Assembly: GCA_001823065.1 (NCBI GenBank)
Contig: MHTJ01000003.1
Span: 253,283 to 317,282, forward strand
Length of the DNA stretch: 64,000 nt
From: Candidatus Vogelbacteria bacterium RIFOXYD1_FULL_44_32
Lineage (GTDB): Bacteria; Patescibacteriota; Minisyncoccia; Phycocordibacterales; XYD1-FULL-46-19
Direction: 5' to 3'
The notes under the pieces were generated by a model. It ran no database searches. It was not told the DNA's origin and saw nothing but the letters and a program-made list of their open reading frames with translations. This document shows positions 49,548 to 52,991 of the stretch, piece by piece; the stretch's first letter is position 1; every line of letters begins with the position of its first letter. The position numbers were made by a program, and so were the translations under genes.

Positions 49548-49651
49548 TGTAAATCACCTCCTTTCAGTTTTTCTATTTAAATTACTACAACAAAAAAATA
49601 CTCACGTCAAGAGTTTTTAATTGGGAACTATATACTTAATTACCCTAGGGA

Positions 49652-49840
49652 TTAATATGACCTATCAGGGCTACCAACAACTTCTCTGGCATCCAGGTAC
49701 TGATTACATTCATATTCAGAAAAACCATAACAAGTTCCTCCTTCGTCATATAAACCAGGTTCTTGGCGAATAAACATTCCATAGATTACGGCTCCAATTA
49801 AAAGCGCTAGCGCTAATAAAAGTCCTAATCCGTCTTTCAT
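49652..49840 (-). CDS. IS passenger: 62-aa membrane peptide with a Cys-containing tail (GGTCYGFSEYECNQY)
   Basis: Its ATG overlaps the stop of the upstream 45-aa ORF (ATGA), and its stop lies next to the left IR. Confidence 0.45.
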   Translation of the reverse strand: MKDGLGLLLALALLIGAVIYGMFIRQEPGLYDEGGTCYGFSEYECNQYLDAREVVGSPDRSY

Positions 49841-49974
49841 TTTTTCTTGGACTTAACTTTTAATGTTTTCTTATCCTTATACCCAGAACCAGCAATAGCC
49901 CCTAAGACTTGGTCAAAGGAGGCTGGTACTGGTTCGTGTTTCTTTGGTTTTCGTCCCCTAGTTTCTTTTTTCAT
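49837..49974 (-). CDS. IS passenger: 45-aa highly basic peptide
   Basis: MKKETRGRKPKKHEPVPASFDQVLGAIAGSGYKDKKTLKVKSKKK. Overlaps the end of the 170-aa ORF and is coupled to the next ORF by ATGA. Below the ORF-track cutoff. Confidence 0.4.
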   Translation of the reverse strand: MKKETRGRKPKKHEPVPASFDQVLGAIAGSGYKDKKTLKVKSKKK

Positions 49975-50470
49975 CAGGTTTATCTAAGTCTTCTGGCTTA
50001 AAGTTGTATTTCTCTAATAAAATATCTCTGAAATAAATACCCCCTATCCTACGCATTGTTTCAATACTCCAACCATACAAGAAAGAACTTTGCTTTATTT
50101 TTTCGTTGAAATCTCCAAAATCCACAGAGTCGAATAATTTAAAAGCACATTCTTGAATGTTGTATTGATTTTGTATATCATTTTTTGTCTCACATTCCAT
50201 AAGTAGTTTTCCTTTATTTTTGTCTATCCAGTCTTTTAGTCCACTTTCTTCTAATGCTTTAATCCCAGTTGGTTTTAATGCAATGGGAGAAGCGTTAGCA
50301 AAAGCATCATTCATTCTTCCTTCAAGTTTTGTAATACTTTCTTTAATCCAAGTTATCGAAGTTTCTATAGCAGAAAAACGACTGCCTGATTTCCACGCAA
50401 TAACAATGAGAGCACCCATTATGCCCAAAAAATAAATCCAGTCTATTTGTATTACAAGAGGCTCAGTCAT
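49958..50470 (-). CDS. IS passenger: 170-aa protein with an N-terminal TM helix, no recognisable family
   Basis: Lies 20 nt downstream of the transposase stop on the same strand. Confidence 0.55.
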   Translation of the reverse strand: MTEPLVIQIDWIYFLGIMGALIVIAWKSGSRFSAIETSITWIKESITKLEGRMNDAFANASPIALKPTGIKALEESGLKDWIDKNKGKLLMECETKNDIQNQYNIQECAFKLFDSVDFGDFNEKIKQSSFLYGWSIETMRRIGGIYFRDILLEKYNFKPEDLDKPDEKRN

Positions 50471-50490
50471 AAATATATTATAACAGATAA

Positions 50491-51375
50491 CTAAGCAGTT
50501 AATTGTTTATATAATAATTTATCACTTTTTGCAATTTTTAGTGTCACTAGGTCGAATTTCTCGGCTAGACTATCTTGACGGTTATTGAAGCGAAAGGTTA
50601 TTTCATCAATGTAGCGCTGTAAGTGCTTTTTACTCATTGAGTGATAGGTACCGTGATAATTACGCTTAAACAAAGCCCAGAAGCTCTCGATTGAGTTGGT
50701 GTGGACATTGCCACGGACATACTGCTTGCGACTGTGTTTAATTGAATCGTGCTTAAAGCCAATCCGAACTAGTTTACGATAAACACCAGCGTCATCGGTC
50801 ATTAGATAGGCTTTAGGATTAACATTTTTTGTTACCGCATTAAGAACGGTGTGTGTCTGACGGTCTGGGATTTGGAAAGCTCGAAGTTTACCGCCTCGCT
50901 CTGTCATTCCCATAACAGCCGACTTTTTTGAGAAGCCGTGTTTGCGATTATGCTTTCCACCTAGATAGGTTTCGTCAATTTCTACAGTACCAATCAGTTT
51001 ACCTTTATTTTGCTTTAGAGCTTCACGAATACGCATATCCATAAACCAAGCGGTCTTTTGGGTTACGCCGACTTGCTCGGATAAGTAAATTGAAGAAACT
51101 CCCTTTTTAGAAGTTGTCAGAAGATAAATGGCAATAAACCATTTTTGCATCGGGATTTTGCTTTCACCAAAGAGGGTGCCTGTCTTAACAGTGAAGTCTC
51201 GTTTACAGCTATCACAACGAAAGCGTTTACCGTCTTTGAAACGGAAAATCTTATTGTGCTTACAGTGAGGGCAATAGTCCCCACCAGCAAAGCGCACATC
51301 CTCAAAGTGCTTTCGACAGACTTCCTCGTTGTGGAAGTGGGATATAAATTCGGCTAAGGTCTTAAAGTTTGTCAT
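50491..51375 (-). CDS. IS1595-family (ISXO2-like) DDE transposase
   Basis: 294 aa. N-terminal zinc ribbon CPHCKHNKIFRF...FRCDSCKRDF, then IPMQKWFIAIYLLTTSKKGVSSIYLSEQVGVTQKTAWFMDMRIREA and the DDE core (TVEIDETYLGGK...). Confidence 0.92.
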   Translation of the reverse strand: MTNFKTLAEFISHFHNEEVCRKHFEDVRFAGGDYCPHCKHNKIFRFKDGKRFRCDSCKRDFTVKTGTLFGESKIPMQKWFIAIYLLTTSKKGVSSIYLSEQVGVTQKTAWFMDMRIREALKQNKGKLIGTVEIDETYLGGKHNRKHGFSKKSAVMGMTERGGKLRAFQIPDRQTHTVLNAVTKNVNPKAYLMTDDAGVYRKLVRIGFKHDSIKHSRKQYVRGNVHTNSIESFWALFKRNYHGTYHSMSKKHLQRYIDEITFRFNNRQDSLAEKFDLVTLKIAKSDKLLYKQLTA

Positions 51376-51814
51376 ATTTATAGCTTATACCTATTCGATA
51401 GGGTTGTCAAGTTCCTTAAATAAATAGGGGTAGGTTGACAGCTTTTCTAGATTTGGTATTATTTACGGTAGCCTTTCACAATAAGTGGGACTGGTACTCC
51501 CCAATAAGAAGCAAACCAAAGACAGAAACCTGTCTCAAGTGTGGCGTGGGTATCTAAAAGTACCATACGCCTAGTGCGTATTCCCGAAAGGGTTTGCTCA
51601 CCTACGTCACACTTGGAACGGGTTTTTTCTGTAAACGAAAACACCCCCGTGAGGGGGCGGTAAGGTGACTGGAAGCCGGAAACTATCAAAATGGGGATAA
51701 GGGAGAGACAGACTCCCAAAACTTGTACAAGGTCCCAAGTCCTACTGCAGTAGGGCGAACTAAAGCTTCGAAGCGTGTCACTTTAATTCCTCCTCCTTGG
51801 GGGTGTTTTTGTAA

Positions 51815-51900
51815 GCGCCGATGACGAAAATGGTATCCGTCCTCGTTCTGTAAACGAGGGTTCCTCCCAGAACTTACGGGTTCGAATCCCGTTCGACGCA
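51815..51900 (+). tRNA. class II tRNA-like element (long variable arm), possibly a pseudo-tRNA, inside the IS
   Basis: Canonical T-arm ACGGG-TTCGAAT-CCCGT. Acceptor GCGCCGA/TCGACGC has one C-A mismatch. 3-bp D-stem with an 11-nt D-loop as in tRNA-Leu/Ser/Tyr. 17-nt variable arm. The anticodon loop TCTGTAA has C at position 33, so identity is unclear. Confidence 0.3.
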
Positions 51901-52085
51901 CAGAGTATTGACGAAAAGCGTCATCTGTATCCTAGCAGGATATGGGGACTTTGTCAATATTCAAAGTATAACACTTGGGGAGTTGTCCACGCCAACATTT
52001 TTATCAATTTTTCTGTTGATAAGGTGTACAGGGGCTATAATGGCAGCTTTTTATTATGGTAGGCGTAGTATGTTATAGTTAAGAA

Positions 52086-52244
52086 ATGACAATTATACCC
52101 TATATTATATTGGCAGTTTTGCTTTTTGGTTTGTTTAATGCCTACAGAGATTTTAAGAGTCAAATCGGATGGCTACATAGAAGGTTGGAGAAATTGGAGA
52201 AGAAAGTTGGTATTAGTGAGAAGGAAACTCAAGATTTACTCTAG
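52086..52244 (+). CDS. IS-internal small membrane peptide (52 aa)
   Basis: MTIIPYIILAVLLFGLFNAY... N-terminal TM helix and a charged C-terminus. Confidence 0.35.
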   Translation: MTIIPYIILAVLLFGLFNAYRDFKSQIGWLHRRLEKLEKKVGISEKETQDLL

Positions 52245-52293
52245 GGTAACGGATATAAATTTTAGAAAACATTAAAAGGTATAAAAATAAAAA

Positions 52294-52458
52294 ATGACAT
52301 TAATAATTATATTAGCTTTGGCTGTAATAATCTTTGGCCTTTTTGTTATAAGTAAGCAGTTAGGTGATACTTATAAATTACTTGACGGAAAGTTTAATAA
52401 TAATAAAGACGAGTCAGAAATTGTTGGTAAAAAGCATAAAATTGATTTAGAAGCCTAG
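52294..52458 (+). CDS. IS-internal small membrane peptide (54 aa), paralogous in architecture to 52086-52244
   Basis: MTLIIILALAVIIFGLFVIS... Its stop lies inside the right terminal repeat. Confidence 0.35.
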   Translation: MTLIIILALAVIIFGLFVISKQLGDTYKLLDGKFNNNKDESEIVGKKHKIDLEA

Positions 52459-52595
52459 GGTAATTAAGTATATAGTTCCCTTTTAATTTGTATTTTTCCC
52501 AACTTAGAGAGCTTCCTTCCTTTCCGACCACTGTAAAGGGATAGTAAAAATCAAGGGGTGAATAAACAGGCCGGTGGTCAATGATATTTTTTCTA

Positions 52596-52991
52596 CTAAT
52601 ATTTAGCCACCTTAGATTTTAGGTTAAACTGAAATATTATCTCAAATAAAGATAAAGCTATGGGCAGAATAATGTATGGCATCCATAATATATAATATAC
52701 AAAATCAGTTAAAAGTAGATAAATAAGCCAAATTAAATCAATAATAAATAAAATGTTCAATAAATAAGGCACTAGAGCGATATTTAATTTTTTAAAAATA
52801 CATATTGATATGTAAATTCTATTTGCAAACAAAAGAATAAAAACACCTACCCACAAGAAAAAGCGTAGTGGTACCGAATTTATATTAGCAAAACTACTAA
52901 TAAATAAAAATAAAAAAGAAAAATATAAAAAAATGACAAAATAAGCAAGATTAGAAATTATAAGATAATCTTTATTTATTATATTTATCAT
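52596..52991 (-). CDS. hypothetical polytopic membrane protein in an extremely AT-rich (about 22% GC) block
   Basis: 131 aa, very hydrophobic (Ile/Leu/Phe-rich). Lies between the IS and lysS. Confidence 0.4.
   Translation of the reverse strand: MINIINKDYLIISNLAYFVIFLYFSFLFLFISSFANINSVPLRFFLWVGVFILLFANRIYISICIFKKLNIALVPYLLNILFIIDLIWLIYLLLTDFVYYILWMPYIILPIALSLFEIIFQFNLKSKVAKY

Follow-up and report, generated by a model that had tools for sequence, protein, structure and literature searches.

An insertion sequence of the IS1595 family was analyzed in the genome of Candidatus Vogelbacteria bacterium RIFOXYD1_FULL_44_32, with particular attention to its cargo, which includes a tRNA gene preceded by a structured leader. 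The window, that is the whole stretch of DNA which was analyzed, covers 64,000 nt (contig MHTJ01000003.1, positions 253,283-317,282 of the forward strand), and the element occupies 2858 bp of it (49623-52480). Related contigs are referred to by locus labels (L001, L013 etc.), and positions in them are numbered within their own locus.

Downstream of the transposase gene lie three minus-strand open reading frames (ORF170, ORF45 and ORF62), and on its other side about 700 nt between its start (51375) and ORF52 are free of credible ORFs. The leader and the tRNA gene are situated in these 700 nt, and the small plus-strand frames ORF52 and ORF54 follow them up to the right end of the element. The cargo inside the repeats which a first-pass annotation of the window had noticed was found again here, with three overlapping ORFs, about 0.45 kb of structured non-coding sequence that has the tRNA at its end, and two small ORFs. 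The positions of all features are given in Table 1.

Table 1. Features of the IS1595-family element in the window and transposase-less remnants at related loci (positions of the remnants are those of their own locus)
Feature	Position	Strand	Remarks
Left target-site duplication, TTTTAATT, 8 bp	49615-49622		abuts left repeat
Left terminal inverted repeat, GGGAACTATATACTTAATTACCCTAGGG, 28 bp	49623-49650	+
ORF62	49652-49840	-	small Cys-containing protein; hydrophobic N-terminus reads as membrane or signal segment; variable cargo
ORF45	49837-49974	-	basic peptide, 45 aa, MKKETRGRKPK..H.P..ASF..VLGAI..S.YK..K.LK.KKK
ORF170	49958-50470	-	predicted N-terminal membrane helix and all-alpha domain; cargo
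IS1595-family transposase	50491-51375	-	294 aa, full length; zinc ribbon and DDE domain
Promoter-like TTGACA-15 nt-TATAAG	51384-51410	-	before transposase; read by eye, unreported by promoter scan
Near-consensus sigma-70-type promoter TTGACA-16 nt-TATTAT	51435-51462	+	upstream TG; 11/12 consensus matches
Leader, 5' part	51465-51634	+	long hairpin domain; so far in this element only
Leader, 3' part	51635-51809	+	multi-branched domain of about 175 nt with long G/C-clamped closing helix; ends 5 nt before tRNA
Class II tRNA, Leu-like body, anticodon UGU	51815-51901	+	Rfam, ARAGORN
Promoter-like TTGACA-17 nt-TAGGAT	51929-51957	-	consensus match only
ORF52	52086-52244	+	hydrophobic N-terminus reads as membrane helix; variable cargo
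ORF54	52294-52458	+	hydrophobic N-terminus reads as membrane helix
Right terminal inverted repeat	52453-52480	-	27/28 match to left repeat (one mismatch)
Right target-site duplication, TTTTAATT, 8 bp	52481-52488		abuts right repeat
Remnant in L036	7542-8621
Remnant in L029	6300-6997
Remnant in L058	4001-5010

The insertion sequence and its relatives

The transposase matched the complete Pfam profile DDE_Tnp_IS1595 (PF12762; 6.1e-43, profile positions 1-153 of 153), its residues 16-59 matched Zn_ribbon_IS1595 (PF12760; 3.2e-10), and the NCBIfam model transpos_IS1595 (NF033547) gave 189.7 bits against a cut-off of 75. The window therefore holds each of the marks of the IS1595 family, namely the DDE_Tnp_IS1595 domain, an N-terminal zinc ribbon, inverted repeats and an 8-bp duplication. 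The first-pass annotation had proposed a complete and intact IS1595-family element bounded by 28-bp repeats, and the analysis bears this out on each point: the transposase is of full length and both repeats are present. The start of the repeat (GGnnACTAT) and the K seven residues after the E of the DDE motif suggest that the element may belong to an ISNwi1-like subgroup.

The match between the two ends was verified as annotated, and the pattern GGGAACTATATACTTAATTACCCTAGGG was found nowhere else in the window when up to three mismatches were allowed (0 expected from 100 shuffles). The octamer TTTTAATT occurs 25 times in the window against 15 expected, and since it is so common it is weak evidence of a duplication by itself. 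At both of its ends the element is more AT-rich than the flanking DNA, with a G+C content of about 31-37% compared with about 45%.

Relatives of the transposase were collected from 12 loci by a scan of one genome per species. The six closest loci all belong to Patescibacteria (candidate phyla radiation, CPR), i.e. Saccharibacteria, Liptonbacteria, Paceibacterota and one unclassified Patescibacteria genome, and the transposases of the CPR elements L001-L005 have 54-73% identity to that of the window over nearly their full length. Among the loci found here, the subfamily of the window element occurs almost only in Patescibacteria. The terminal sequence (GGGAACTATATAC...ACCCTA) stands inverted at both ends of related elements which are 2.4-3.4 kb long, and the first 13-26 nt of the repeat are kept at the ends of L001, L002, L004, L006, L013, L032, L035, L039 and L059. 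At least eight related elements in other Patescibacteria contigs share the inverted repeats, each with its own 8-bp duplication (L001, AATAAAAT; L002, CAATCAGC; L004, ATAATTTT; L005, TAAAATTA; L006, GTTTTTCT; L035, CTCATATA; L039, TCAATTTA; L059, AAGCGAAT). Because relatives with the same repeats each show a different octamer, the 8-bp duplication is a property of the element family, as had been supposed from the window copy.

The element family is clearly mobile. The element of L013/L034 recurs in L039 between other flanks, so that one element is seen at two sites, and the element of L004 (907-4283), whose terminal repeats are identical to those of the window, splits a reverse-transcriptase gene; when this element and one copy of its duplication were deleted in silico, a continuous reverse-transcriptase ORF of 357 aa with a YCDD motif was obtained. 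For the exact window element, look-ups with the exact proteins of the transposase and of the neighbouring HAD-type hydrolase turned up no further insertion and no unoccupied site: all 7 contigs with an identical transposase and all 8 with an identical hydrolase have the same insertion site and represent the same locus in several samples, so that mobility is evidenced for the relatives only (L013 versus L039). The further copies and empty sites which the first-pass annotation had proposed to look for were accordingly recovered for the family, with the 28-bp repeat recurring in eight related elements and the empty site of L004, and not for this particular copy.

A conserved tRNA gene behind a structured leader

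The tRNA scored 38.5 bits in Rfam, where the gathering score is 29, and was reported by ARAGORN as Thr-UGU. It has a D stem of 3 bp, a variable-arm hairpin GUUC/GAAC and A73, and it has no encoded CCA, which is likewise the case for the host tRNA-Glu in the window. The Rfam score was obtained in a run on 5 kb, and the same tRNA was missing from the run with gathering thresholds on the whole 64 kb; this discrepancy is apparently a filter effect and bears on the automated annotation of such tRNAs.

Nine distinct variants of the tRNA were aligned (the variant of L059 was found later). In this alignment 98.6% of the cells of the cloverleaf are paired and 16 of the 23 pairs show compensatory change; none of 500 shuffles reached the observed pairing, and when the 3' partners were slid only 30-46% paired. 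All five helices covary, including the variable arm, which is UCC/GGA in L059 compared with GUC/GAC in others. The acceptor and T stems are of 7 and 5 bp in all variants, and in every variant the variable region forms a stem of 3-4 bp with a loop of 5-7 nt, unlike the class I loop of 4-5 nt. The anticodon UGU, A38 and C2-G71 are invariant or nearly so, and the same applies to the tertiary nucleotides U8, A14, G18G19 and the T loop (UUCRAAU). The sequence is a genuine, conserved cloverleaf tRNA, so the first-pass annotation was right about its presence and too cautious in calling it merely tRNA-like.

Among 241 million metagenome records only 13 loci matched a strict pattern of the tRNA (D-arm and UGU loop), and in nearly all of them the IS1595 transposase, a DUF5343 gene or both lie close by. 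One more variant, in the phage-like contig L024 (same sequence as L029), came from two looser scans of viral contigs; otherwise the viral-contig scans, made with the leader motif and with the looser tRNA pattern, gave known loci and one chance match in coding sequence. When the tRNA was compared by BLAST with E. coli genomes and with phages, there were no matches or matches to the T-arm only. Wherever both ends of an element are visible the tRNA lies inside the repeats. It is divergent from the transposase in the window, L001, L002, L032 and L059, convergent with it and downstream of ORF45 in L013 and L035, and co-oriented with it in L003 (Liptonbacteria, 1626-1889), where a leader and a class II tRNA with anticodon UGA and A73 are the only visible cargo. 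The tRNA and its structured leader are thus a conserved passenger of the subfamily, which goes beyond the first-pass annotation.

These results also bear on the objection that the repeats and the duplication arose by chance or that the tRNA is an ordinary host gene which happens to stand between two repeats. The common octamer and the single copy of the exact element agree with such an explanation, which is nevertheless almost certainly wrong: a 28-nt repeat that is expected 0 times is present at the ends of eight related elements, the tRNA type is confined to just the 13 metagenome loci with their ties to the transposase family or DUF5343, and the repeat scan, this linkage and the restored ORF of L004 already contradict it.

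The best promoter of the region is the near-consensus site on the plus strand, which points into the leader and the tRNA and away from the transposase. The promoter-like site on the other strand is so placed that the transposase mRNA would be leaderless; the segment 51399-51424 is kept in L002, L030 and L032, and a neighbouring part of it in L035. The 441 nt after the plus-strand promoter fold at -161.9 kcal/mol, with z-scores against shuffles of -4.5 for the plus strand and -2.6 for the minus strand, and the leader and tRNA together fold with z -4.4. A third promoter-like site is located just 3' of the tRNA and would read antisense through the tRNA and the leader towards the transposase gene. 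An exact direct repeat of 12 nt, TTCTGTAAACGA, was also observed at 51627-51638 and 51846-51857, the first copy being at the base of the leader and the second forming the 5' part of the anticodon stem-loop.

The leader of the window is about 350 nt long and consists of two parts. No sequence similar to its 5' domain was found in the related loci. For the 3' part, about 185 nt upstream of the tRNA are alike in L029, L036, L032 and L058, with a G/C-clamped closing helix, three internal hairpins and eight pairs that show compensatory change among these loci. A covariance model which was trained on these four sequences only, with the window excluded, matches the 3' part of the window leader on the plus strand with 33.8 bits (E about 8e-7, a rough value), and since the model gives about 30 bits to the reverse strands of its own training sequences, part of this match is that of a generic long hairpin. 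The model also matches L003 at 1626-1785, and in both the window and L003 the match lies directly 5' of the tRNA on the same strand. Among known RNA families, Rfam searches (permissive on 5 kb, with gathering scores on the whole window) matched only the tRNA, and no ribozyme, riboswitch, 6S, tmRNA, GOLLD or ROOL match was obtained for the leader; weak matches to Twister-P5 and L2-leader (E 0.4-0.8) were discarded.

In seven relatives (L001, L002, L003, L013, L035, L038 and L059) there is a simple hairpin together with a leader/trailer duplex of 11-16 bp around the tRNA. The duplex covaries (L003 and L059 differ in sequence), and in 6 of the 7 only 0-1 of 300 shuffles reached its energy; it is a perfect 11 bp in L003, and in the window it is reduced to 5 bp. 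In rRNA operons and some tRNA operons, stems formed by leader and trailer are processed as substrates of RNase III. The duplex looks like a processing stem of this type, and the flanks of the tRNA pair and covary in the seven relatives as they do in such operons; the window copy differs by its 5-bp clamp and its self-contained multi-branched leader.

The clamp raises the question whether the leader and the tRNA serve decoding at all, or whether they would form a cis-acting processing or punctuation signal, by which RNase P or RNase III would set and stabilise the ends of transcripts, or an antisense partner of the transposase transcripts which limits transposition. The covarying 11-16-bp duplex would suit such a role, as would the orientation of the module, which is on the opposite strand to the transposase or convergent with it except in L003, and the minus-strand promoter-like site 51957-51929, which would make the transcripts overlap. 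Irregular allo-tRNAs near transposon genes have been suggested to be unused in translation (Mukai et al. 2017, PMC5389517). We regard this role as very unlikely. Covariation of the stems goes together with little or no change in the UGU anticodon, A37/A38, the T-loop, G18G19 and the first acceptor pairs, and this pattern argues for selection on decoding and charging, which a processing signal does not need. The position and orientation of the module relative to the transposase are moreover not fixed (arrangements A and B, and that of L003).

Identity of the tRNA and proposed working of the element

Identity was analyzed by comparison with reference tRNA genes from E. coli MG1655. The body of the tRNA has 56-70% identity to tRNA-Leu(CAG), taken outside the anticodon loop, compared with 40-43% to tRNA-Thr(UGU), 40-49% to tRNA-Tyr and 40-56% to tRNA-Ser, and the D-arm agrees with that of tRNA-Leu(CAG) at 13-18 of 20 positions. 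A Leu anticodon (NAG or NAA) was found in none of the nine aligned variants, all of which have UGU. The tRNA also carries the set of the threonyl-tRNA synthetase (ThrRS), i.e. the first two acceptor pairs together with G35 and U36: C2-G71 is present in 9/9 variants and G1-C72 in 8/9 (G-U in L032). Because these positions are kept, charging with Thr is probable, and the tRNA most likely decodes ACA as Thr.

A sibling was observed in a 114-kb IMG/VR contig (L021, 1817-1904), where a tRNA-His(GUG) with G-1 and C73 has the same D-arm and a variable arm GUC-UGUAAUG-GAC. Since the His anticodon and the His marks G-1 and C73 occur together in it, this tRNA suggests that identity follows the anticodon on the Leu-like scaffold, and it seems that mobile DNA uses this scaffold again for tRNAs of other amino-acid identities.

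Codon usage was examined in an alignment of 13 transposases, six of them from tRNA-bearing elements, which is a small and phylogenetically non-independent sample. At columns 41, 98, 101 and 224 ACA is interchanged with ACT, ACC and ACG, and it fills the conserved S/T column 123 in 6/6 of the tRNA-bearing elements. Over the six tRNA-bearing transposases, ACA falls in T/S-majority columns in 3 of 19 cases and in hydrophobic-majority columns in 6 of 19; ACC is in T/S-majority columns in 12 of 17 cases, and ACG in 15 of 18. As a host control, the ACA codons of DnaK, RpoA and S4 align with T/S of E. coli in 5 of 10 cases and with a hydrophobic residue in 0 of 10. A full reassignment of ACA was considered and set aside, as the mixed signal of the transposase columns gives no support to it and the host control fits the standard code. 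ACA makes up 13 of the 35 Thr codons of the element (37%) compared with 135 of 867 in the host (16%; Fisher p = 0.002). This agrees with the classical view that tRNAs of mobile elements make up for a difference in codon use between element and host.

On this basis we favour, with some reserve, the interpretation that the element is an intact IS1595-family transporter insertion sequence with a promoter-leader-tRNA module which supplies a Thr-charged decoder of ACA. The transposase would cut at the repeats and paste the whole 2.86-kb unit into AT-rich 8-bp targets. Transcription would be divergent, giving a leaderless transposase mRNA in one direction and, from its own strong promoter, a leader-tRNA precursor in the other. 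The ends of the tRNA would be trimmed by RNase P and RNase Z, with RNase III as a further possibility in those relatives in which leader and trailer form a duplex about the tRNA, and CCA would be added post-transcriptionally, as must happen for the host tRNA-Glu which also lacks an encoded CCA. The mature tRNA, probably charged with Thr, would then read ACA. The element would benefit by bringing along a decoder for a codon which the host uses rarely and the element genes use often, and decoding from this source may also withstand an attack on the tRNA of the host. ORF170, ORF62, ORF52 and ORF54 would be swappable hitch-hikers.

Several observations weigh against this interpretation, in addition to the single copy of the exact element and the limits of the leader model which were given above. 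The body is clearly of the tRNA-Leu type and has the full identity set of the E. coli leucyl-tRNA synthetase (LeuRS), which consists of A73, A15:U48, G18G19 and A20a (review PMC9976931), so that charging with Thr is not assured. At position 33 the window tRNA has C, where U is near-universal, and its acceptor stem contains a C4-A69 mismatch; C33 (loop UCUGUAA) is found in the window, L032 and L038, and U33 in the other 6 of the 9 aligned variants. Single ACA codons stand at columns 177, 257 and 260 of the transposase alignment, which are otherwise Leu/Ile/Val. The argument from codon supply is weak. Across the elements there is no correlation of the ACA or UCA share of the transposase gene with the presence of the tRNA (for ACA, 0.36 in L005 without tRNA and 0.25 in L059 with tRNA), and the ACA excess of the element may be only a reflection of its lower G+C.

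One alternative is that the tRNA is charged with Leu, which would then be inserted at ACA, either as deliberate or conditional mistranslation or as a private recoding of the element genes. Bacterial LeuRS ignores the anticodon, and the Leu-type body, closer to tRNA-Leu(CAG) than to tRNA-Thr(UGU), with A73 and the complete LeuRS set, would suit it; L003 has the same scaffold with anticodon UGA and A73, and the hydrophobic-majority columns (6 of 19) and the three single ACA positions point the same way. We consider charging with Leu distinctly unlikely, in view of the exchange of ACA with ACT, ACC and ACG at four columns, the S/T column held in 6/6 elements, the ThrRS set (G1-C72 in 8/9, C2-G71, G35 and U36) which is kept, and the switch of the identity marks to His in the His-anticodon sibling; the column counts in its favour come from the small and non-independent sample of transposases. 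Insertion of Leu at ACA would also harm the proteome of the host, in which ACA codons behave as Thr. If LeuRS does charge the tRNA, the element could be a portable device for at least partial ACA to Leu reassignment or mistranslation, with the structured leader as a dosage switch, and we give this proposal an equally low standing.

Cargo genes and comparison with known systems

ORF45, which overlaps ORF170 by 17 nt, has relatives just downstream of the transposase in L001, L002, L003, L006, L013 and L035 (tblastn). They share the motif K-E-T-R-G-R-K-x-K-x-H-x-P-x3-F-x2-V-L-G-A-I...Y-K...K-K-K, which is also the N-terminus of the methyltransferase of L004. Among 1.8 billion representative proteins 18 relatives were found, nearly all of 42-54 aa; one further candidate, P0070 (a repeat protein of 1377 aa), was judged to be a chance or low-complexity resemblance. 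ORF45 is a conserved companion of the transposase and belongs to the core of the element. The first-pass annotation had seen a passenger module of three coupled ORFs; their overlap stands, and ORF45 has to be removed from the passengers since the relatives examined have it together with the transposase. The rest of the cargo is exchanged from one relative to the next and includes restriction-modification (R-M) systems, DUF5343 and membrane proteins.

ORF170 has 59 homologs, and those named by their source are CPR hypothetical proteins. They stand alone in the three contexts examined (a serine recombinase with an R-M system, a DDE_3 transposase, and SecDF), and one homolog is inside the related element L035. 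ORF62 overlaps ORF45 by ATGA and gave no match in Pfam, NCBIfam, PHROGs or PADLOC and no homolog in the related loci. The two small membrane peptides of the first-pass annotation, ORF52 and ORF54, are present; their N-termini resemble each other, and the stop codon of ORF54 falls within the right inverted repeat. Relatives of ORF62, ORF52 and ORF54 were not detected in the library scans or in the related loci.

A DUF5343 gene of 240-258 aa is situated just upstream of the leader or hairpin in L001, L002, L032, L036, L058 and L059, and its product matches the PADLOC candidate defence protein PDC-M34A (E 1e-14 to 1e-19). For its function only generic winged-helix matches were obtained and no mention was found in the literature. 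The window does not carry such a gene, as tblastn of both DUF5343 proteins gave nothing better than E 1.2, and the idea that the leader is a decayed DUF5343 gene was dropped for the same reason. L004 and L013 carry R-M systems in place of DUF5343; that of L004 is a type II pair of a D12 adenine methyltransferase and a PDDEXK_11 nuclease, and this element has no tRNA. Transposase-less remnants (L036, L029/L024 and L058) keep the leader and at most one terminal repeat; DUF5343 is retained upstream of the leader in L036 and L058. L036 and L029/L024 have an intact tRNA, and that of L058 has decayed, with part of its anticodon arm lost.

DUF5343 genes outside insertion sequences were observed next to R-M genes in L061 (2465-3660) and L058 (5089-6316), the neighbours being an EcoRI-like nuclease with a D12 methyltransferase and PDDEXK_11 with a D12 methyltransferase. 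In both loci the DUF5343 gene has a G/C-clamped hairpin behind it, and in L061 there is no tRNA behind the hairpin. The related insertion sequence with R-M cargo in L013/L047 is carried by a 7.6-kb IMG/VR contig (IMGVR_UViG_3300002460_001555); phage genes were not noticed within the 6.8 kb examined, and the viral label may be an artefact.

The defence-type cargo bears on one more explanation, by which the tRNA would be a protected spare, insensitive to a tRNA-cleaving or -inactivating toxin or defence nuclease, or would provide immunity to a toxin borne by the family. Its variable arm and altered anticodon loop would be the basis of this protection, and the decoding of ACA would be sustained for element and host. 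Phage tRNAs are reported to evade tRNA-targeting defences by changes in the anticodon loop and to neutralise PARIS and retron effectors (PMC10264068, PMC11464382, PMC11555353). The R-M systems of L004 and L013 and the DUF5343/PDC-M34A genes are consistent with it, as are C33 in 3 of the 9 aligned variants including that of the window, the occurrence of one variant in the phage-like contig (L024/L029), and the retention of DUF5343, leader and tRNA in the transposase-less L036 and, with the tRNA decayed, in L058. We hold the protected spare to be unlikely, and the Thr-charged decoder of ACA remains the interpretation which we favour.

The IS1595 family and its passenger-carrying members are known already. 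Insertion sequences of this family were reportedly described by Siguier and co-workers in 2009, and members with passenger genes include the ISNwi1 and ISPna2 "plus" groups and ISNha5 of ISfinder. To our knowledge insertion sequences are usually seen as a transposase and little else, and the passengers of IS1595 are protein genes. The window element resembles these members in its transposase with Zn-ribbon and DDE_Tnp_IS1595 domains, its inverted repeats, its 8-bp duplication, the passengers inside and a length within their 1.7-4.7 kb. It differs from them in that the conserved passenger is an RNA module in place of a protein gene, in the 45-aa basic peptide which accompanies the transposase, and in its Patescibacteria hosts.

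For the tRNA the nearest precedents are phage tRNAs and allo-tRNAs (PMC5389517). As with phage-encoded tRNAs, a mobile element has its own tRNA, which deviates in or near the anticodon loop, and one variant is in a phage-like contig; in contrast to them the carrier is a 2.9-kb insertion sequence and not a virus, the structural class is wrong for the anticodon, and a structured leader of 180-350 nt is present upstream. The long variable arm and an anticodon which does not fit the body are shared with allo-tRNAs, some of which adjoin transposon-related or toxin-antitoxin genes (PMC5389517; review PMC7609411). Allo-tRNAs have acceptor and T stems of 8/4 or 9/3 and Ser or Ala identity, and since the stems of the element tRNA are 7/5, with A73 and a Leu-type D-arm, it is not an allo-tRNA.

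A Leu-type class II body with a non-Leu anticodon also occurs in the nev-tRNAs of nematodes, which Hamashima and co-workers are said to have described in 2012 as class II tRNAs with Gly or Ile anticodons that are charged with Leu in vitro; those are eukaryotic chromosomal genes with no mobile element and no structured leader, unlike the element tRNA. In the literature on IS1595 passengers, allo-tRNAs, and CPR tRNAs and insertion sequences we found no description of an insertion sequence with a conserved tRNA passenger, nor of a class II Leu-bodied tRNA with a Thr anticodon and a structured leader of 180-350 nt.

The best-conserved passenger here is an RNA module which moves between Patescibacteria genomes and of which one variant was seen in a phage-like contig. 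Were the tRNA a plain Thr decoder, this would be a minimal mobile element with its own translation component, for which large phages are so far the main example. Charging by LeuRS, or resistance to tRNA-targeting toxins, would make it a natural portable tool to alter or protect decoding, and synthetic biology would gain a new tRNA scaffold. The family is also an example of how the tiny CPR genomes trade defence genes (R-M and DUF5343/PDC-M34A) on units of about 3 kb.

Directly to the right of the element lies ORF131 (52596-52991, minus strand), in a stretch of 23-25% G+C compared with 43.5% for the window. Its sequence reads as a multi-pass membrane protein, and a further foreign insert, whole or in remnants, may be present here.

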